Source: Promethearchaeota archaeon
GTDB taxonomy: Archaea; Asgardarchaeota; Lokiarchaeia; Sigyniarchaeales; SOKP01
Assembly (NCBI GenBank): GCA_011364975.1
Contig: RDOE01000083.1
Span: 1 to 14,570 of the forward strand
Direction of reading: 5' to 3'
DNA length: 14,570 nucleotides
Under the pieces are notes generated by a model. That model did not search any database, was not told where the DNA came from, and saw only the letters and a list, made by a program, of their open reading frames with translations. Positions 3,281 to 14,570 of the stretch are shown one piece after another; the stretch's first letter is position 1, and each line of letters begins with the position of its first letter. The translations under genes and the position numbers were made by a program.

Positions 3281-4183
3281 ATGTTAGAATTCAAAATTGA
3301 ACAAAATGTTGTTGAGATTGGTAACGTAAAATTGGGAGGACAACCTGGAGAAAATCCCACCGTTATGATTGGTACGGTATTTTATGCTAAACATAAAGCA
3401 TTATTAAATGAAAAAACTGGTGAATTTGATAAAAATTTATTAGAACAAGAACTCAATGAATATAGTGAAGTAATTGAAGATACGGGAATACAAGGAATCA
3501 TTGATGTTGTAGGAGCATATCCTGAAGCCTTGGCAAAAGAATGCGAGTATATTGCAGATACCGTAGATTATCCCTTTTTGGTTGATGGTTTAAATGATAA
3601 TTCAAGAATTCCCGCGATTAAAATATTAAGTGAAAAAGGATTACTAGATAAAGCAATACTTAATAGCATAGATGAGTCAACAACTGAAGAAAACCTTCAA
3701 AAATTAAAAGATATTGGCTTGAAAAATGCAGTGCTGCTCACTTTTAGTAGTAGGCATATATTTCCAAAACAAAAGCTCCAATTACTTAATGATCATTTAA
3801 TCCCAAAGGCCCAAAAAGCGAATATAAAAAATATTATTATCGACACTGCAGTATTAGATTTAGCATCTATGGGAATTAATTTTGAAACCGTCCAACTAGT
3901 AAAAAATGAATTGGGTCTACCTGTTGGTTTCGCTCCGGCTAATGCAATTTACGGATGGAATTATATTAAAAAATATGGGGATACTCCTAGATGTGGGGCT
4001 ATAGCATCACAAATGGCTTATTGCGTAAGTGCGGGTAGTGATTTTGTATTATTTGGCCCGATTAAATTTGCAAAATGTGTAATCCCCTCAATTGCATTGA
4101 TTGATGCGATTAATTCTTACTATAGAAAAAGGATTCTAAGAAAACCTATATCAGAAAGATCCCCATTAAAACACATTTTTTAA
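3281..4183 (+). CDS. mtrH: MtrH-family pterin-binding methyltransferase (tetrahydromethanopterin S-methyltransferase subunit H-like), stand-alone
   Basis: N-terminal signature GGQPGENPTVMIGTVFY, plus PFLVDG, ILNSI, IIDTAVLD, LPVGFAPANA and GSDFVLFGP. Length of 300 aa is typical of MtrH. Confidence 0.9.
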   Translation: MLEFKIEQNVVEIGNVKLGGQPGENPTVMIGTVFYAKHKALLNEKTGEFDKNLLEQELNEYSEVIEDTGIQGIIDVVGAYPEALAKECEYIADTVDYPFLVDGLNDNSRIPAIKILSEKGLLDKAILNSIDESTTEENLQKLKDIGLKNAVLLTFSSRHIFPKQKLQLLNDHLIPKAQKANIKNIIIDTAVLDLASMGINFETVQLVKNELGLPVGFAPANAIYGWNYIKKYGDTPRCGAIASQMAYCVSAGSDFVLFGPIKFAKCVIPSIALIDAINSYYRKRILRKPISERSPLKHIF

Positions 4184-5685
4184 GAGATATATCTGATTAC
4201 CAAATCTTGTGTGTTTTCAATGAAATTAGGCAATTTCTTAATAATTTCGCTTTTACTATTTTCATCCTCAAGCAAAAATAAAAGATACATTATAGATTCT
4301 GTAAGCATTATTTTCTTAAAATAAATAACGGAATTAGATACATTAAAAATAGCTTCATTTACACCTCCGGATTTATATCTAGAAAATATTTTAAATAACC
4401 TTGTAAATTCAGGGGCGGATAATTCAAATATATTTACTAAATCTTCATTTGTTGGGACATTTATTAAATTCTTAGCATCCGGTGAGAAATAATCTGCTAG
4501 TACTAATCCTTCCATACTCAATAAAAGTGCCAATAGAGAACCTGAGCCTTGAGATAATATATCTAAATTATGTTTAATTAAATCCCGATTTGGACTTAAT
4601 TTAGCTAATCCTGAGGAAAAAGCTCTCAGTATAGTAAAAATTTCAAAAATACTTGTGACATGAATCTCAAGTGGCTTATTATTAAATAAAACACCTAATT
4701 CTTTCTTAATTATTTGGAGATTATCTTTTATTAGGAAAGTATCTATAATATCAGGATCTCCCTTTGTTAAGATTAAAATAATTGGCGTTTTTTGATTCAT
4801 TTTGTCCAACACTTCCAGAATATTTTGAAGATAATCTATGCTTTCTTTAAATCTATTCCTAGATTTAATATCAATAAAGTAATATATGAGATCTGCTTCA
4901 AATAAGTAGATCTGAGCTTTATTAATATATTTTTTCCTTAAACTAAGTTGACCTCCGAGGTCCCAAAGAAAAATATTAGCTCCAAGAGCTTCAATTGATG
5001 TAATTTTCGCCCCTCGAGTAGGTTTTAATCCAATTAGTTTTGAGAATTTTCTATTTACAGATAGTAAAAATGAGGTTTTACCAGAATCATCTAATCCCGC
5101 GCAAATTATTTTCATTTTTCTGTTTGTAGAAATGAGAGTTGAAGGCTTTTTCTCGATTTCTACAATTTGAGTAATGATCTCTTTAAAATCCTTTTCTATC
5201 TCCTCTTGAGGTTTATAATTATCTATAATTTTTTTATCAAATAACGTAAAAAAATTTAGGATGATCTCCTTTAATCGATTAATGTTATTATAAAAAAAGC
5301 TCCGTTTATTCTCATCTACTAATATACAAAAAGCAGTAGCTAATGGTAAATCATTGAAAGTAGTAGAAATAAAATGATAAAATGTAAGAGACGTTGCATC
5401 AAAATCTGGAAAGGGTATTATTCCAAAGTATTTAAAATCGCCCAAATCTGATTTTTGAAATATTGAACCATCTCCAATTAACAAACTCAGGTTTTTTATT
5501 GCAATTTGTGTATAATCTCGTACTGTTAGGGAAATGTGGTTATTTATATCTTTATCTTTATTAAATGATTCTGTTTCCCCGAGCTCTGTTGGTTTTGGAA
5601 ACATGTAGATTGGCTGAGGACCAAACTTATCATAGGTGCAAAAAGCAATTCCTTTAATGATTGAAGAATTAATGAGGTCTTCCAT
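4180..5685 (-). CDS. Fusion protein: N-terminal uDENN/longin-like domain, Arf/Rag-like small GTPase, C-terminal roadblock/longin-like domain
   Basis: G1 GLDDSGKT (nt 5097-5074), G2 PTRG, G3 WDLGGQ, G4 TKGD, G5 TSIFE. N-terminus GIAFCTYDKFGPQPIYMFP resembles the uDENN 'hhhxxFDxxxGPxhxxxhP' start. C-terminus LALLLSMEGLVLADYF is a roadblock-type beta-hairpin. Confidence 0.85.
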   Translation of the reverse strand: MEDLINSSIIKGIAFCTYDKFGPQPIYMFPKPTELGETESFNKDKDINNHISLTVRDYTQIAIKNLSLLIGDGSIFQKSDLGDFKYFGIIPFPDFDATSLTFYHFISTTFNDLPLATAFCILVDENKRSFFYNNINRLKEIILNFFTLFDKKIIDNYKPQEEIEKDFKEIITQIVEIEKKPSTLISTNRKMKIICAGLDDSGKTSFLLSVNRKFSKLIGLKPTRGAKITSIEALGANIFLWDLGGQLSLRKKYINKAQIYLFEADLIYYFIDIKSRNRFKESIDYLQNILEVLDKMNQKTPIILILTKGDPDIIDTFLIKDNLQIIKKELGVLFNNKPLEIHVTSIFEIFTILRAFSSGLAKLSPNRDLIKHNLDILSQGSGSLLALLLSMEGLVLADYFSPDAKNLINVPTNEDLVNIFELSAPEFTRLFKIFSRYKSGGVNEAIFNVSNSVIYFKKIMLTESIMYLLFLLEDENSKSEIIKKLPNFIENTQDLVIRYIS

Positions 5686-8145: not shown

Positions 8146-8703
8146 ATGAAATTTAACTATAAAGAACAGTATAAGGGAACAATATCTATAATTGGAGCAA
8201 GCGAAATTGATTTCCCTACTAAAAAACTAGCAATCGAGTTAGGAAAATTATTAGCAAAAAACCGATATGCTGTTGCTTGTGGGGGATTATCTGGTGTAAT
8301 GGAAGCGATCTGTCAAGGCGTTAAAGAAGAAGGTGGATTAACAATCGGAATTATTCCATTTAAAGAAAAGGATTATGCAAATAAATATGTTGATATTGTT
8401 ATACCGGTTCCATTTTCCCAAGCACGGAATATAATAGTGGTACTAGCAGGAGATGTAGTAGTTGCTATAGCAGGTAAAGCTGGAACCCTCTCAGAGATAT
8501 GTTTCGCCTGGATTTACGAAAAACCAATTATTGCTTTAACGGGAGTCAATGGATGGTCCTCGAAACTCGCTGGAGAGAAAATTGATGACAGACGTACAGA
8601 TTTTATATATGGTGCTGTAAATGCTCAGGAAGTAGTTGATAAACTAAATGAATTGTTTGATAAAAAAATTACTACAAAATATAATTTGCCGGCTGAATTT
8701 TAA
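8146..8703 (+). CDS. TIGR00725-family SLOG/LOG-like Rossmann nucleotide-binding protein
   Basis: ISIIGAS, CGGLSGVMEAICQGVKEEGGLTIGIIP, ARNIIVV and GKAGTLSEI are characteristic of LOG-like TIGR00725 proteins. Confidence 0.9.
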   Translation: MKFNYKEQYKGTISIIGASEIDFPTKKLAIELGKLLAKNRYAVACGGLSGVMEAICQGVKEEGGLTIGIIPFKEKDYANKYVDIVIPVPFSQARNIIVVLAGDVVVAIAGKAGTLSEICFAWIYEKPIIALTGVNGWSSKLAGEKIDDRRTDFIYGAVNAQEVVDKLNELFDKKITTKYNLPAEF

Positions 8704-8856: not shown

Positions 8857-9825
8857 GTGACAATTCAATATCTATCTAAAGAAAAGAAGGTTAAAAAAGA
8901 AGAATTTCCTTCCACAAAAATCTTGTTTACAGGACTCGACAATGCAGGAAAAACAACAATTATTTATGCTCTCCAGAGAGAATTTTCTAAGATTGCTTTA
9001 TTGAAGCCAACTAGAGGTGCTCAGAGACGTATATTCGAGTTTCTAGGACGTGAAATATCTGAATGGGATTTGGGTGGTCAGTTATCTTATCGTATAGCTT
9101 ATTTAAAGAACCCTACAAAATATTTTGATGGAACTGAAATAGCAATTTATGTTATAGATATACAAAATAAGGCTAGGTTACCTGAAGCTATTAGTTATTT
9201 TAAGGATGTAATTGAACAATTTCGAAAGTTAGAAATAGAACCTCCAATTTACATATTTTTCCATAAATATGACCCTGCTTTAAAGAGGAATGCGATGAAT
9301 GAAATGAAGAATCTAGAACTAGATTTAAAAGAAAAGATTAAAAATTCTGTAGATTACAAAAAAGTCTTGTATTATAATACTTCAATATATGATCTTTCGA
9401 GTATCATTAAAGCTATGTCTGAAATTCTTTTAAATTTGTATCCAAAATCAGAATTAATTGAAAAAACTATTATAGAATTTGGAAAAAAGACGTATTCTGA
9501 AGGTGTTGTTCTATTAGATGATAATTCCTTAATTGTGGGTTCATATTATAAAGATGAAGAAACAAAAAACACTTTGTCAGCGTCAACCCCTTATTTTCTT
9601 ACTCTTAATGATAGTTTTGTCTTTACTCAAGCACAACCTAGTTTGCAGGATAAGGAAGATTTTATGGTTGTACAAAGATTTGGTAAAAATTTCATATTTA
9701 AACAAATTAAATTAAAAGGCGATTTGACCCCATATTACATATTAATACTTAAACAAGACCCAAATATTACTAAAGATGATTTTGAAGTATTTGCTAATTT
9801 ACTGAAAGAAATCCTATACAGTTAA
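8857..9825 (+). CDS. Rag/Gtr-like (Arf-related) small GTPase with C-terminal roadblock domain
   Basis: G1 GLDNAGKT, G2 PTRG, G3 WDLGGQ, G4 FFHKYD (HKxD is Rag-type), G5 TSIYD (as in RagC/Gtr2). C-terminal ~125 aa with GVVLLDDNSLIVGSY roadblock-type strands. Confidence 0.88.
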   Translation: MTIQYLSKEKKVKKEEFPSTKILFTGLDNAGKTTIIYALQREFSKIALLKPTRGAQRRIFEFLGREISEWDLGGQLSYRIAYLKNPTKYFDGTEIAIYVIDIQNKARLPEAISYFKDVIEQFRKLEIEPPIYIFFHKYDPALKRNAMNEMKNLELDLKEKIKNSVDYKKVLYYNTSIYDLSSIIKAMSEILLNLYPKSELIEKTIIEFGKKTYSEGVVLLDDNSLIVGSYYKDEETKNTLSASTPYFLTLNDSFVFTQAQPSLQDKEDFMVVQRFGKNFIFKQIKLKGDLTPYYILILKQDPNITKDDFEVFANLLKEILYS

Positions 9826-9962: not shown

Positions 9963-10973
9963 GTGATTATTTGTTCTAATTGCGGTGCTACCAATAATGA
10001 GGCGAATGGGCATATATGTAGGAAATGTGGTGCATTATTGCCAATTTCCAATAAAACACCTCGAATAAGAATAGCTACAAAGAAGAAAGAGAAAGAAATT
10101 CTAAAAAGTGATAAACCTGTTAAAGACGAAGAACTATTTTTTAAACCTAGTAAATCAGAACTACATGATATTCCGCTAACGGAAGATATACATGTTAAGA
10201 CTACTTCTAAAGCAAAAGTTGAATCTTCAGAAATTATTAATACTCAAGATAGCGAATTTTTGGAAAAAATAGAAGAAGATGAGCAAGAGAAAGAAATATT
10301 AAAAGAAATTACTCCTAAACCCTATAAAGGATCAATAATTGCAGATAAAGGAGTATACGGCGTTAAACCTCAAGAAAAGATAATTGAAGAAAAGAAATTA
10401 ACCAAAGGTTCAGCTAATGTCTCCGAATCAGCGTTAGTTAAGCAGAAACAATTAGAGGAAGATATGACTAAGGTATTGAAGTTTCTTTCAAAAAAAGTGA
10501 CAGTTAAACCATTAGACGATTTAAAAAAAATTCCAGTAGCTAAAGAAAAAAAAGTAAAGGAGTTATCTCCATCAAGTATGAATGAAATCTTAAGAAATTT
10601 ATTAAAATTAGATATACATATTGAAGCATCAGCAATTATACAAAAGGATGGAACTATTTTAGCCTCAGCAATTTCATCTAGAATTTCTGATTCGTTATTC
10701 GGTACTATCGCTCAAAATTTATCCATGATTGGTAATGATATAATTGAGGGTTTAGATGCTGGAAAATTAATGAACATTTCGATTAGAGGATCCGAAGGAA
10801 TATTGGATCTCGCTCCAATTGACACTAAAGGAAAGTTAAAGAATGAAATAGTATTAATTATTTTTTCTCATCCAAAAGTGAAAAGTGGAATTATCCATTT
10901 TGCCGTAAATATTGTTAAGAAACAAATCATTGAATATTTAGGTTTATCGAAAGTAAAAGTAAAATTAGATTAA
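9963..10973 (+). CDS. Zinc-ribbon, Lys/Glu-rich disordered linker, roadblock/LC7 domain protein
   Basis: N-terminal CSNCG...CRKCG zinc ribbon; ~170 aa charged low-complexity linker; C-terminal roadblock domain (IEASAIIQKDGTILASAIS...LDAGKLMNISIRGSEG...KSGIIHF). Confidence 0.82.
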   Translation: MIICSNCGATNNEANGHICRKCGALLPISNKTPRIRIATKKKEKEILKSDKPVKDEELFFKPSKSELHDIPLTEDIHVKTTSKAKVESSEIINTQDSEFLEKIEEDEQEKEILKEITPKPYKGSIIADKGVYGVKPQEKIIEEKKLTKGSANVSESALVKQKQLEEDMTKVLKFLSKKVTVKPLDDLKKIPVAKEKKVKELSPSSMNEILRNLLKLDIHIEASAIIQKDGTILASAISSRISDSLFGTIAQNLSMIGNDIIEGLDAGKLMNISIRGSEGILDLAPIDTKGKLKNEIVLIIFSHPKVKSGIIHFAVNIVKKQIIEYLGLSKVKVKLD

Positions 10974-11762
10974 ATGTTTTTGAAGAAAAACACGATTAAT
11001 ACTAACCGTTTTAAAAAATTTTAAATTTGAAGTTAGTTCTTGTAGGAAGGCATTTAAATTTTGAATGCTAACCAAAGGTATAGAATTTTCATTGATTCTA
11101 ATCCAATTTAATTCCAATGTCACCATTATGGGGATTAAAATAAAGGGAAGTCTTTTTTTTATATTAACCTTAAGCGTTAACAATTGTTGAATCAGGTTTG
11201 AAAAAGTTTCGGGATTATTCTTTAAAGCAAATGTTCTCCTAAATTGAAGATTTGCAGCCTTACTTATTGCATGATAGGAATCTTTTCGCCTCCACTGTTT
11301 AGCATCTATTAGTAGTATATAATTCTGATATATTCCAACTACATCAATTTCATATCTTTTTTGAGATGTTTCTAACTTAAAATTAGATTTATCAGAAAAT
11401 CTAAAATTTTTAATTGTCTTATAGTTATTCTTTATTAAAATTTCCTCTACTAGTGACTCAAATCCCCAATAATCTAAAATTTCAGCAAGATTTTTAATAT
11501 CATAGCTTAAATATTTAAAGCATTCTGTAATAAATAATATTTTATTAATAACGATATACTCGATATAATTTCCTTTTTGAATTGAGACGAAATCGAATAA
11601 ATTAAGAAAGTCTCTAATTTCATATTTAGTAAAATGAGTAAAGTATTTAATCTCACTAATTTCATGCCATAACTCTATTACATCAGGGTTAGAATCCTTA
11701 AGAATGTCATAAATTTCAGAAAAAAACTGTTTTATTTTAGTGAATTCCAGTGAGTGTGCCAT
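10965..11762 (-). CDS. PD-(D/E)xK restriction-endonuclease-fold protein (Mrr/NERD-like)
   Basis: WGFESLVEEIL helix (Mrr-like FExLV), YEIDVVG (catalytic D) and LLIDAKQW (D/E-x-K), followed by the PIMVT strand seen in archaeal members. Confidence 0.8.
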   Translation of the reverse strand: MAHSLEFTKIKQFFSEIYDILKDSNPDVIELWHEISEIKYFTHFTKYEIRDFLNLFDFVSIQKGNYIEYIVINKILFITECFKYLSYDIKNLAEILDYWGFESLVEEILIKNNYKTIKNFRFSDKSNFKLETSQKRYEIDVVGIYQNYILLIDAKQWRRKDSYHAISKAANLQFRRTFALKNNPETFSNLIQQLLTLKVNIKKRLPFILIPIMVTLELNWIRINENSIPLVSIQNLNAFLQELTSNLKFFKTVSINRVFLQKHLI

Positions 11763-11956: not shown

Positions 11957-13773
11957 ATGAAATTATTACCAAAAGTCTTTAGAACAGAAGGTGACATGGT
12001 TGAGTTCGATCCTTCCAAGATTTTAAATAGTATTATTGCTGAAACCGGAGTTAGTGAAGAAAAAGCAAAAGAAATTACTGAACTAGTCGTTAGGAGGATA
12101 ATTTCTTCAGGGATGCAATTTCTCTCTGGACCACACATACGAGAGATTGTTTGCTCTATTCTTTCCGAAAATCATTATGAGAAAGAAAGAAAATTATATA
12201 CTCGTATTGGTATGCCTCTTATGGATTACGAAGAAATCTTAGAACATGGATTAAAAAAAGAAAATGGTCAAATGCTCAATCCAGAAAAAATACATCATTG
12301 GGCAGCCAATCAACTTGCCGAAGAATATACTTTATTAAGAATTCTTAATGATGAAGAATCCAAAGCCCATTTGTATGGAGATATTTATATTCATCAATTA
12401 AAATATTTTGACTTAAGGCCATATAGCCAGATTTGGGATCCAAGATTAATTTTAAAAAATGGTCTACCTCCTATTACTAACTCAATCAATTATTATAAAT
12501 CAGGACCTCCTAAAGATTTACAAGAGGCGGTTTTTCAGTTAGCAAATTGGTTTGGAATAATTCAAGGCGAATTTTGCGGCAGTCAAGTTTACGATTTTTT
12601 AACAATTTTCCTCTCTCCTTTTGCGAAAAATTTAGATGATAACGCCTTAAAAAGTGCGATTAGAACATATATTCACCAAATTAATCATATATCAATGATA
12701 TTGGGTAAAGGATATCTGAAGAGTAGTATTTATTGTAGTCCTGTTATAATCGAACCTTTAAGAAATCTTCCTGCTATTGGCCCAGAGGGAAAAGTAATGG
12801 GTATTTATGGAGATTACGAGGATGAATGCCTGAATATTTTTAACGCATTTACTGAGGCATTTTCTTTAGGAGATTATAGTGGAAAACATAATAAGTGGCC
12901 TCTTCATGCTATTTACTTTAAAAAGGAATGGTTAGATTCATTTCGAGAGCAATATATTAACATTTTTAAGAGCATTTCATCAAATTATTACCCCATTTTA
13001 GTCAATACCTCTACAGAAGTATATAATTTAAAACTTGGATTAATTAAAGCTAATGAATATTTTAATCACGGCATCTTGCAAAAATTATCAATAAATCTCC
13101 CAAGAATTGCTTATTTAGCTAAAAATGAGAATACATTCAATGAATTATTATATGAGAAACTCAATCTATGCTTTAATATTTTAGATAAAAAATCCGAAAT
13201 AATTAAAAAACGACTAAAAACGAAACATCTTCCCTTTTGTAGTAGTTTAGTTAATAATCATCCATTATATAATTTTGATTTACAAGAGCTCTGCATAGGA
13301 TTCGTTGGATTAAATGAAGCCGTGAAAATAATATCGAATTCTGAAATGCATGAATCTATTGATGCATTAAATTTAGGGAAAAACATTGTTTTGGAGATGA
13401 AAAATCTGTGTTTACAACAGTCTCATAAAACAGGTTATGTATACTCACTAATCGAAGATTCATCAAATACAGCCACATTACGCTTTAAAAAGTTAGATCT
13501 AAAACATTTTCCGAAAATATCTAATATCGATGGTTTAAACCAAACTATATATATTGCAATTCAACCCACTTCCGAGAAGATTCTGGCTTAACTATCCAAG
13601 AGCTATTAAAAAAACAAAGTGAATTTCATATATTAATTAATAAAGGTGCTTTTGAGCGTTTTAATGTTAATAATAGAAAAATTCAAATAGATTCTCCAGA
13701 AAAGATTCTTGAAATTTTAGGGTTGGTTTGTTCAGAGACAAATATTAACGATATTCAATTTTACTTTCAATAG
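11957..13773 (+). CDS. ATP-cone + class III ribonucleotide reductase (NrdD)-like protein, catalytically degenerate, with a -1 frameshift at about 13525-13555
   Basis: ATP cone (VFRTEGDMVEFDPSKILNSIIAETG...LSGPHIREIV) and NrdD motifs YTRIGMP, AHLYGDIYIHQL, GILQKLSINLPRIAY and IGFVGLNEAV. The zero frame stops at 13591. The -1 frame (open 13525-13773) encodes YCNSTHFREDSGLTIQELLKKQSEFHILINKGAF...DIQFYFQ*, homologous to the NrdD YxNSxH...E-x-FH-x-L-xx-GG segment. Could be a recoded gene, a pseudogene or a sequence error. Confidence 0.8.
13534..13540 (+). other. Candidate -1 ribosomal frameshift heptamer T_TTA_AAC
   Basis: X_XXY_YYZ heptamer in the correct phase (ggT TTA AAC) inside the ~30 nt interval where the frame change must occur. 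No convincing downstream stimulatory structure seen. Confidence 0.3.
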
Positions 13774-13884
13774 TAACTTTTTGATTAAATGTTATTATTA
13801 CTTACAAAACTTTAAAATCGGAATCTTTTTTGATATATTAGAATATTAAATTAATTTTTATCAAACATTAGATTTTAACGTACC

Positions 13885-13897
13885 ATAAGTTTATATT
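13885..13897 (+). promoter_or_regulatory. Candidate BRE/TATA box (ataagTTTATATT) for the downstream GTPase fusion gene
   Basis: TTTATA core preceded by an A-rich BRE-like sequence, about 60 nt upstream of ATG 13955. Confidence 0.35.
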
Positions 13898-13954
13898 TTA
13901 ATAAATCAGGCCATATCTATATTTACGCTAATAAAAGACAGAACCTTTAATAAA

Positions 13955-14570
13955 ATGATTGAAAATAAATCAGAAATAGTGAAAGCAATTGTTTTAAGTC
14001 TGTTTGATGATGACGGACCTACTCCAAAAGTTTATTGGCCTGAAGATATGGATGAAAATTCCCGGTTATTAATAGCAATGAAAACAATCAGTCTTTTAAT
14101 GGGAGATTCTGTATATCAGGATGGTACAACCACCGAGGGAATTAATTATTTTGGAATCTTACCTTTTCCTGATTTGAAATTAAATGGCTTGACATATTTT
14201 TTTCTTATTTATGATCCTATGGCAAGAGGAAATGCAAAAGCAGCAACTATTACAATACTCATAGATGAAGAAGATAAAGGGTTTTTTTATGAAAATATGA
14301 AATATCTTCGCGTTATAATTGATAATTCCGCCTCTAAAATCCAAACTTCGAAAAGTTTTGATGAAGATCAAGATATTATGACAGAACTTAAAGATGAATT
14401 ATTTGATTTTACAAAAGAAATAAGAGATCCTTTTTCATTTAAAAAACAAATTAAAATACTCTTTGCAGGATTAGACCAAGCAGGTAAGTCCAGTTTTCTT
14501 TTAGCTGTAAAAAAAAGATATTCCGAGATTATAAAATCACTTCCTACAAAGGGAATTGCTAGATCTGATG
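13955..14570 (+). CDS. uDENN/longin-like domain + Arf/Rag-like GTPase fusion, paralogue of 4180..5685 (3'-truncated by the window; missing from the ORF track)
   Basis: Manual translation from ATG 13955 is open to the window end: MIENKSEIVKAIVLSLFDDDGPTPKVYWP...IAMKTISLLMGD...YFGILPFPD...ITILIDEEDKGFFYEN...IKILFAGLDQAGKSSFLLAVKKRYSEIIKSLPTKG. G1 GLDQAGKS at 14468-14491. Colinear similarity with the 501-aa protein. Confidence 0.9.
   Translation, partial: MIENKSEIVKAIVLSLFDDDGPTPKVYWPEDMDENSRLLIAMKTISLLMGDSVYQDGTTTEGINYFGILPFPDLKLNGLTYFFLIYDPMARGNAKAATITILIDEEDKGFFYENMKYLRVIIDNSASKIQTSKSFDEDQDIMTELKDELFDFTKEIRDPFSFKKQIKILFAGLDQAGKSSFLLAVKKRYSEIIKSLPTKGIARSD

Follow-up and report, generated by a model that had tools for sequence, protein, structure and literature searches.

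The window analysed here is the whole of a 14,570-nucleotide stretch (contig RDOE01000083.1 of assembly GCA_011364975.1) from a Promethearchaeota archaeon of the Asgard class Lokiarchaeia. Near its end lies a gene for a short paralogue of NrdD, the class III ribonucleotide reductase (RNR), referred to below as the short form. RNRs are regarded as indispensable, and the ATP-cone as their on/off switch. An initial annotation of the window, made from its letters without database searches, had described the gene as a frameshifted NrdD homologue that keeps an ATP-cone and a barrel and lacks the parts needed for radical chemistry. In the window, the open reading frame (ORF) at 11957-13591 on the forward strand encodes 544 amino acids (P0001), and the +2 frame then runs on to a TAG codon at 13771-13773. 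The frameshift itself did not hold up: the two letters at 13546 that cause it are missing in the contigs of all three DNA runs compared, which belong to three studies and one of which may be the window's own sample, and the top database match, P0002 (99% identical, 604 amino acids), is intact, with a frame that is unbroken through ...NQTIYCNSTHF.... The shift in the window is an assembly artefact or a rare variant, not a biological feature, and programmed frameshifting was dropped as an explanation since the extra letters are missing from the contigs of three studies. Because neither the three runs nor P0002 carry these letters, the natural gene was taken to be an intact ORF of 604 amino acids, and P0002 stands in for the window protein in all later analyses.

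Profile searches and structure prediction both connect the short form to NrdD. The Pfam profile NRDD (PF13597) matched P0001 with an E value of 5.2e-52, aligning to positions 7-434 of the 562 in the profile, and P0002 with an E value of 6.8e-59; the NCBIfam equivalog for NrdD, TIGR02487, reached 174.6 bits, which is under its cut-off of 326.35. An AlphaFold2 model of P0002, obtained with a 117-row alignment (mean pLDDT 87.5, pTM 0.81), contains an N-terminal beta-hairpin with four helices, a low-confidence linker at residues 84-110 and a full barrel. The top matches of this model in a Foldseek search of the PDB were all NrdDs (9d3x, 8p28, 4coj and 1h79, with E values of 4e-26 to 1e-16), and PF13597 and Foldseek together indicate that the NrdD barrel fold is present. 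Residues 2-350 are 53-56% identical to the NrdDs of the family, with the motifs LNLPR, GLNEA and RLD.KHFP in common. The arrangement of an ATP-cone and a ten-stranded barrel is the same as in canonical class III NrdD, represented by the copy in the archaeon's own genome and by the structures from T4, T. maritima, P. copri and S. thermophilus; unlike these, the short form lacks both active-site cysteines, the NxN flap, the Zn ribbon and the glycyl-radical domain. When seven features of NrdD were looked for in the short form, six were missing and the barrel fold alone was found, and the protein should therefore not be filed as an RNR.

The catalytic losses were followed in 132 short forms and 31 canonical Asgard NrdDs. 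At the first active-site cysteine the codon is AGC, encoding Ser157 just as the initial annotation had read it, and canonical NrdDs have RPFCQ there in 31 of 31 cases; the P. copri counterpart of this beta-strand cysteine is Cys171. Position 157 is polymorphic (S/N) among near-identical populations, and across the short forms the cysteine is replaced mostly by S, N, E or T. The finger loop, which had been described as short and free of cysteine, was confirmed by alignment to carry a 26-column deletion that removes the thiyl-radical cysteine, and the region was also aligned to the S. thermophilus and T. maritima NrdD chains. The C-terminus ends about 60 residues earlier than in canonical NrdD, with no CxxC..CxxC and no RxxGY / RxxG[FWY], so the earlier reading of the protein end was correct, as was the impression that the AT-rich stretch behind the gene is non-coding. 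Two losses went beyond those noticed earlier. The NxN flap reads NAN in 31 of 31 canonical sequences and is kept by none of the commonest short-form strings, and the substrate-loop Glu is replaced in the short forms. The flap lies in the stretch ENANQD, which is invariant in canonical sequences and variable in short forms, and which contacts substrate in P. copri NrdD, according to the accessible part of PMC11226230. The HxH-type triphosphate motif is partly retained (YIHQ, as in the window, in 49/132 short forms and HIHK in 37/132).

Orthologues with the same losses, for which the initial annotation had proposed to search Asgard genomes, turned out to be common. Eight key positions were scored in 122 rows, namely the 120 matches listed out of 599 together with P0001 and the own-genome NrdD; the finger-loop cysteine, all four Zn cysteines and the radical glycine were missing together in 106 rows, and all eight positions were present in 11. 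A separately encoded glycyl-radical domain was also considered, and no stand-alone copy of NrdD type was found elsewhere in the own genome: PF01228 gave nine matches there, of which eight are PFL-like enzymes and one is an 85-amino-acid frame. This frame (G000:C19:2184-2372) matches the C-terminal half of PF01228 (51 bits) and might be either a spare-part radical domain resembling GrcA or just a fragment.

The ATP-cone shows a different pattern. Its mean pairwise identity is 0.78 inside the short family and 0.74 between short and canonical sequences, and RKLYTR and FLSGPHIREIVCS are nearly invariant in both kinds of cone. Weaker Foldseek matches of the N-terminal domain were to the ATP-cones of NrdR and NrdB, and no DNA-binding domain fused to the cone was found with Pfam in the short form. 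By these comparisons, the cone is kept as well as in the presumably active canonical NrdD.

The first protein search returned 599 matches. Most of the 120 listed are 590-625 amino acids long, 48-70% identical and derived from metagenome-assembled genomes (MAGs) of Promethearchaeota/Lokiarchaeota type; those that bear a name are labelled anaerobic RNR. Intact ORFs of about 600 amino acids number more than 100. A near-full-length match (E <=7.7e-150) is present in 52 of the 101 genomes of the window's GTDB family, and four of these 52 carry a different, second kind of dead form. Among the matches listed for 151 sampled genomes, which represent 25 families of the phylum, those of the short type were confined to the window's family; another 51 low-scoring matches lay outside the listing. 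In a tree rooted on the NrdDs of five other families, the 32 rows of the paralogue family form a single clade with an SH-aLRT of 100. This clade arose within the window's family, after genus g4 diverged, and its branches exceed those of canonical NrdD about 2-4 times in length.

Selection on the short form was estimated from the ratio of non-synonymous to synonymous substitution rates (dN/dS, by NG86). For nine orthologue pairs the ratio was 0.056-0.331 in the short form and 0.043-0.107 in canonical NrdD of the same genomes, being higher in the short form for eight of the nine, and seven additional short-only pairs gave 0.12-0.21. Comparison of the window with three near-identical populations yielded 24 variant sites, 16 synonymous and 8 non-synonymous. 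Conservation is uneven along the protein (mean pairwise identity within the short family, with regions given by P0002 residue numbers): 0.78 for residues 109-165, which comprise the first core helix, HxH motif and strand A and are 0.69 identical between short and canonical sequences; 0.49 for the specificity-hairpin region, residues 166-262; 0.27 for the former finger loop, residues 347-371, where canonical NrdDs reach 0.95; and 0.37 for the C-terminus, residues 531-604. The canonical family has identities of 0.74-0.95 in every region. These data characterize the short paralogue as a predicted pseudoenzyme that is under purifying selection and intact across many genomes, with the constraint concentrated on the ATP-cone, the linker, and the first core helix and strand, and not on the former active site or the specificity hairpin. 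The size of the intact family and a dN/dS well under 1 bear out the earlier suggestion that the gene is kept by selection and is not decaying.

The canonical genes for which the initial annotation had proposed a check lie elsewhere in the genome. The own-genome NrdD has 714 amino acids (G000:C124) and contains RPFCQ, HSQCCRK, CPSC...CPQC and RITGYY, and the one NrdG above the NCBIfam cut-off is on contig C123. The scan of window ORFs turned up no radical-SAM gene, which agrees with the remark that no nrdG is nearby, and no class I/II RNR was found in the own genome. Most of the short-form genomes among the 101 also hold canonical NrdD. G160 (96% complete) carries an orthologue at the same locus as the window, and searches of this genome for canonical NrdD, for NrdG over the cut-off and for PF02867 (class I/II RNR) found none. 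Canonical NrdD and NrdG over the cut-off were likewise not found in three genomes of genus g6, G121 (99% complete), G127 (98%) and G177 (79%), nor was PF02867 in G121 and G127, the two of them searched for it. G121, G127 and G177 may be RNR-less archaea.

Other dead forms of NrdD were encountered in the same survey. The second kind, of 624 amino acids, is present in G121, G127, G177 and G165; it keeps RPFCQ, but neither the finger loop nor the C-terminal domain remains. In G127 and G177, whose flanks were read, it occupies the canonical nrdD locus (L045:1429-3303 and L046:1465-3339), and both genomes also retain a winged helix-turn-helix (wHTH) paralogue. This form branches beside the canonical clade, with NG86 dN/dS values of 0.13-0.21. 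NrdG is present in G162, where canonical NrdD is kept, and under the cut-off or not found in the four genomes with dead forms only. A third kind (P0108, P0113 and P0121) is nested in the canonical clade and has the finger loop deleted; P0108 and P0113 keep the Zn site and have Ser for the radical Gly, and P0121 has Tyr at the first cysteine. Across the sequences examined, the radical machinery was lost at least three separate times: once each by the paralogue family, by the forms that genus g6 has at the canonical locus, and by the P0108 type. The sole NrdD of G148 (L099), a genome of a sister family, reads RPFSQ and KITDYY, has no finger-loop Cys motif and may represent a fourth loss. G138 and G120, from another family, were rejected as short forms: what they hold is in one case a frameshifted and in the other a contig-cut canonical NrdD, and the finger-loop cysteine is kept.

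The surroundings of the gene are conserved. Of the 27 paralogue-type loci, 26 have a longin/folliculin-like and Gtr1/RagA-Arf-type GTPase gene as the next gene downstream, on the same strand, and the remaining locus is cut by a contig end. The NERD gene is divergently upstream in 24 of 27. PADLOC gave no match for the short form, the NERD, cone-only and roadblock-like proteins, or the GTPase. Elsewhere in the window (3281-4183, 4180-5685 on the reverse strand, 8146-8703 and 8857-9825) are an MtrH homologue, two more Gtr1/RagA-Arf-type GTPases and a SLOG/LOG-like protein, a combination typical of Asgard archaea.

In same-genus genomes without the short form, the slot of about 900 bp between the NERD and GTPase genes is taken by a gene on the opposite strand for an ATP-cone-only protein of 144-163 amino acids (group A). 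Group A cones are 41-45% identical to residues 16-97 of the short form. The group occurs in 14 of the 101 family genomes, the short form in 0 of these 14, and all 12 group A loci fetched lie in the NERD-GTPase slot. G127 and G121 have in this slot a protein of 162 amino acids, encoded in the original orientation and 53-54% identical to residues 2-101, in which the NrdD-type cone signature FLSGPHIREIVCS is followed by a basic tail. Cone-only proteins of 161-162 amino acids were found in several database clusters; P0284-P0288, P0291 and P0293 are complete-looking at about 162 amino acids, and the other shorter matches are mostly contig-end fragments. The short form, the 162-amino-acid protein and group A can be read as a reduction series that keeps the cone. 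Of the earlier proposal that cone and barrel were both retained for a role, the part concerning the cone stands, and the barrel appears dispensable where a cone-only gene fills the slot. Another group of cone-only proteins, of 135-155 amino acids, sits elsewhere in some genomes.

Table 1. Features of the short NrdD paralogue and its locus (window coordinates unless a locus is named)
Feature	Position	Strand	Remarks
Short NrdD paralogue	11957..13773	+	Natural gene 604 amino acids; window copy split into a 544-amino-acid ORF and a shifted tail
ATP-cone, residues 1-83	11957..12205	+	Beta-hairpin and four helices (model); R9, R78, K79 and R83 kept
Linker and degenerate flap, residues 84-108	12206..12280	+	Variable sequence instead of canonical ENANQD; low pLDDT
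First core helix, HxH-type motif (YIHQ, 12386-12397), beta-strand A	12281..12451	+	Conserved
Ser157 at first active-site Cys position	12425..12427	+	RPFCQ in canonical NrdD
Former finger-loop region, residues 347-371	12995..13069	+	26-column deletion, no Cys, short helix predicted
Two extra letters in (TA)n run	13546..13547	+	Source of the apparent frameshift; missing in runs X1, X3 and X9
TAG stop	13771..13773	+	Ends ...DIQFYFQ; no Zn site or glycyl-radical domain after
AT-rich intergenic spacer, 181 nt	13774..13954		No ORFs >=60 amino acids
Longin/folliculin-like and Gtr1/RagA-Arf-type GTPase	13955..14570	+	Pfam; cut by contig end
NERD-domain protein	10965..11762	-	Pfam; divergent upstream neighbour
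Protein with weak sub-threshold Zn-ribbon and Roadblock/LC7-like matches	9963..10973	+	Part of conserved neighbourhood
Slot ATP-cone-only genes, 144-171 amino acids	L074:694-1140(-), L079-L090, L091:3183-3671(-), L092:3076-3564(-), L093:2919-3434		Genomes without short NrdD

We suggest, with a probability of roughly 0.55, that the short form acts as a non-catalytic, ATP-cone-based nucleotide sensor or regulator, derived from a dead NrdD paralogue under purifying selection. A sensor of (d)NTPs is the best fit, with the cone, and not the barrel or the specificity site, looking like the selected part. The paralogue is taken to stem from a single duplication inside this Lokiarchaeia-type Asgard family. 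Since then the thiyl Cys loop, the Cys of the beta-strand, the NxN flap, the Zn site and the glycyl-radical domain have disappeared from it; deprived of these parts of radical chemistry, it would be unable to reduce ribonucleotides and have no need of the activase NrdG. Its cone would bind ATP or dATP, and the protein may sense or regulate through nucleotide-dependent association, with the dead barrel serving as a dimeric scaffold only and the sensor role being independent of a catalytic NrdD partner.

Several observations weigh against this interpretation. The short form was not found in about half of the 101 family genomes and is for that reason likely to be dispensable or replaceable. The cone is sub-threshold in Pfam (PF03477, 22.7-22.8 bits against a cut-off of 25.8), and Thr replaces one member of the basic pair that typical cones have at the N-terminus; the canonical NrdD cone of the same genome is likewise under the cut-off, at 20.7 bits, and the presumably active canonical paralogue has the same Thr. 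The description of the cone as intact thus holds in comparison with canonical NrdD, although both cones score slightly below the Pfam cut-off. RNA support consists of a single 204-nt contig (12266-12469) from one metatranscriptome library, possibly DNA-carrying, which is too little for a claim of expression. In an ATP-cone tree of 99 columns, group A sits on a long separate branch and its descent from the short form is not resolved, and sharing of the slot could reflect a tie to the neighbours instead of homology. MAG incompleteness could conceal an RNR in the genomes considered RNR-less. Finally, the identity of the cone (0.74) and first helix (0.69) to canonical NrdD is also expected of a protein that binds NrdD.

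Such a regulatory partner of the true NrdD, already proposed in the initial annotation, would form heterodimers via the conserved core helix, or mixed ATP-cone pairs, and so tune NrdD activity, much as the dead Rnr4 subunit is paired with Rnr2 in the class I RNR of yeast; we consider this possible but unlikely. It agrees with the presence of canonical NrdD and NrdG in the own genome and of canonical NrdD in most short-form genomes, with the cone and residues 109-165 being the best-kept parts, and with the finding, in the accessible part of PMC11226230, that cones pair and control activity in solved NrdDs. An obligate partnership is weakened because G160 keeps an orthologue, and G121, G127 and G177 the other dead form, without canonical NrdD or NrdG. 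Furthermore, about half of the NrdD-bearing family genomes have no short form, and the specificity-site hairpin, which lies at the dimer interface, is poorly conserved (0.49).

A role as input or scaffold of the adjacent longin-Rag/Arf-type GTPase module, perhaps together with the roadblock-like and NERD proteins, in which the short form would report nucleotide status, seems improbable to us. The GTPase gene follows directly in all but one of the 27 paralogue-type loci, and an ATP-cone-only gene fills the same slot in 12/12 group A loci as well as in G127 and G121. However, synteny is generally strong in the family, the neighbours of canonical nrdD also being kept across genera; the 181-nt AT-rich spacer speaks against a single transcript, and group A genes are oriented towards NERD. 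Complex prediction for the 162-amino-acid cone-only protein with the neighbouring GTPase gave a best score of 0.24 against a mark of 0.32 and counts neither way. A broader scenario is more doubtful still: the NrdD-derived cone proteins (the dead barrel form, the 162-amino-acid protein and the 150-amino-acid protein on the other strand) would all provide the nucleotide-status input of this GTPase module, as an archaeal forerunner of Rag/folliculin-type nutrient sensing, and the repeated death of NrdD within this taxonomic order would mark lineages that have no RNR at all and rely on partners for their deoxynucleotides.

That the short form is still an enzyme, either an RNR with its radical source supplied in trans or a barrel with a new, non-radical nucleotide activity, is very hard to believe. 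Several near-complete relatives hold only dead-looking NrdD homologues and no other RNR, the HxH-type motif survives in part, and the genome has the one 85-amino-acid PF01228 frame. Yet the finger-loop cysteine, the flap and the substrate-loop Glu are gone, and the genome is without an NrdD-type radical domain elsewhere; the invariant barrel columns come from a mixed short and canonical alignment and are by construction common to canonical NrdD, conservation is lowest at the former active site, and the barrel is entirely lost in some lineages. A pseudogene decaying after duplication, to which the frameshifted window copy, the 2-4 times faster evolution and the patchy distribution might point, can practically be dismissed in view of the shift-free contigs of all three DNA runs, the more than 100 intact ORFs, the 16 synonymous versus 8 non-synonymous variants, the 78% conserved cone and dN/dS values mostly of 0.12-0.21 (extremes 0.056 and 0.331).

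The nearest functional analogue of the putative sensor may be NrdR, the bacterial ATP-cone transcription repressor, in which the cone serves regulation instead of catalysis; the modelled cone of the short form matches the NrdR structures 9fxk_F and 9a6n_B (Foldseek E ~2-3e-3). Unlike NrdR, the short form has no Zn-ribbon or other DNA-binding domain, and NrdR has no RNR barrel; the wHTH domain in this genome sits on a third paralogue, not on the short form. Yeast Rnr4 is a dead class I RNR beta subunit and an obligate partner of Rnr2. It resembles the short form as an RNR paralogue that was retained after loss of catalytic or cofactor residues and differs from it in subunit and RNR class; moreover, some genomes hold a member of the short family but no catalytic partner for it. 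Aminoacyl radical enzymes are described, in the accessible part of PMC11528403, as glycyl radical enzyme (GRE) homologues in which the radical Gly is changed to Ala, Ser or Thr. P0108 and P0113 are like them in having Ser at the Gly position; the aminoacyl radical enzymes keep the radical domain and the cysteine, whereas the window protein has neither. In the searchable literature, a scope that leaves out supplements and subscription papers, no account of dead Asgard NrdD paralogues came to light, and they are absent from the accessible parts of the GRE review PMC13450708 and of PMC11528403; a preprint on Tn7 (10.1101/2025.07.27.667033), as far as its text was accessible, mentions nrdD solely as an attachment site.

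The family appears to show an ATP-cone switch outliving its enzyme: each time the radical machinery was lost the cone stayed, in some lineages down to a protein at this locus that consists of the cone alone. Such naturally occurring proteins lend themselves to studying the function of an ATP-cone that is no longer tied to catalysis. Near-complete Asgard genomes without a recognisable RNR have a bearing on syntrophic dependence, and the public label 'anaerobic ribonucleoside-triphosphate reductase' on short-form genes can mislead metabolic reconstruction.

Further NrdD-derived genes were noted in these genomes. The third paralogue, of 655 amino acids, combines a DUF7347 winged-helix domain, an ATP-cone and an NrdD-like core, and has neither the first active-site cysteine nor a radical domain; its entries are L003:409-2376 (G000:C113) and L073:1099-3414 (G038), and its family comprises 470 matches. 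It seems to be an NrdR-style regulator that arose in archaea from a dead RNR. A relative of 772 amino acids, found in another Asgard family, has retained CxxC..CxxC together with an RNIGHY loop and lacks the first active-site and finger-loop cysteines. Among canonical genes, nrdD frames of 1189-1687 amino acids with matches in separated pieces (G174:C111, G176:C1, G202:C35, G152:C45, G166:C21 and G209:C211, among others) probably carry inteins. In another Asgard family, an NrdD-like copy (G007:C56:74558-76102) that adjoins a canonical nrdD (G007:C56:72595-74385) is degraded, with TGA and TAA stops in its frame. Lastly, one of the two short copies of G187 (G187:C63, L029) is near-identical to that of G089 (L031), and the canonical NrdDs of the two genomes are not close, a pattern that suggests either mis-binning of the contig or recent transfer.

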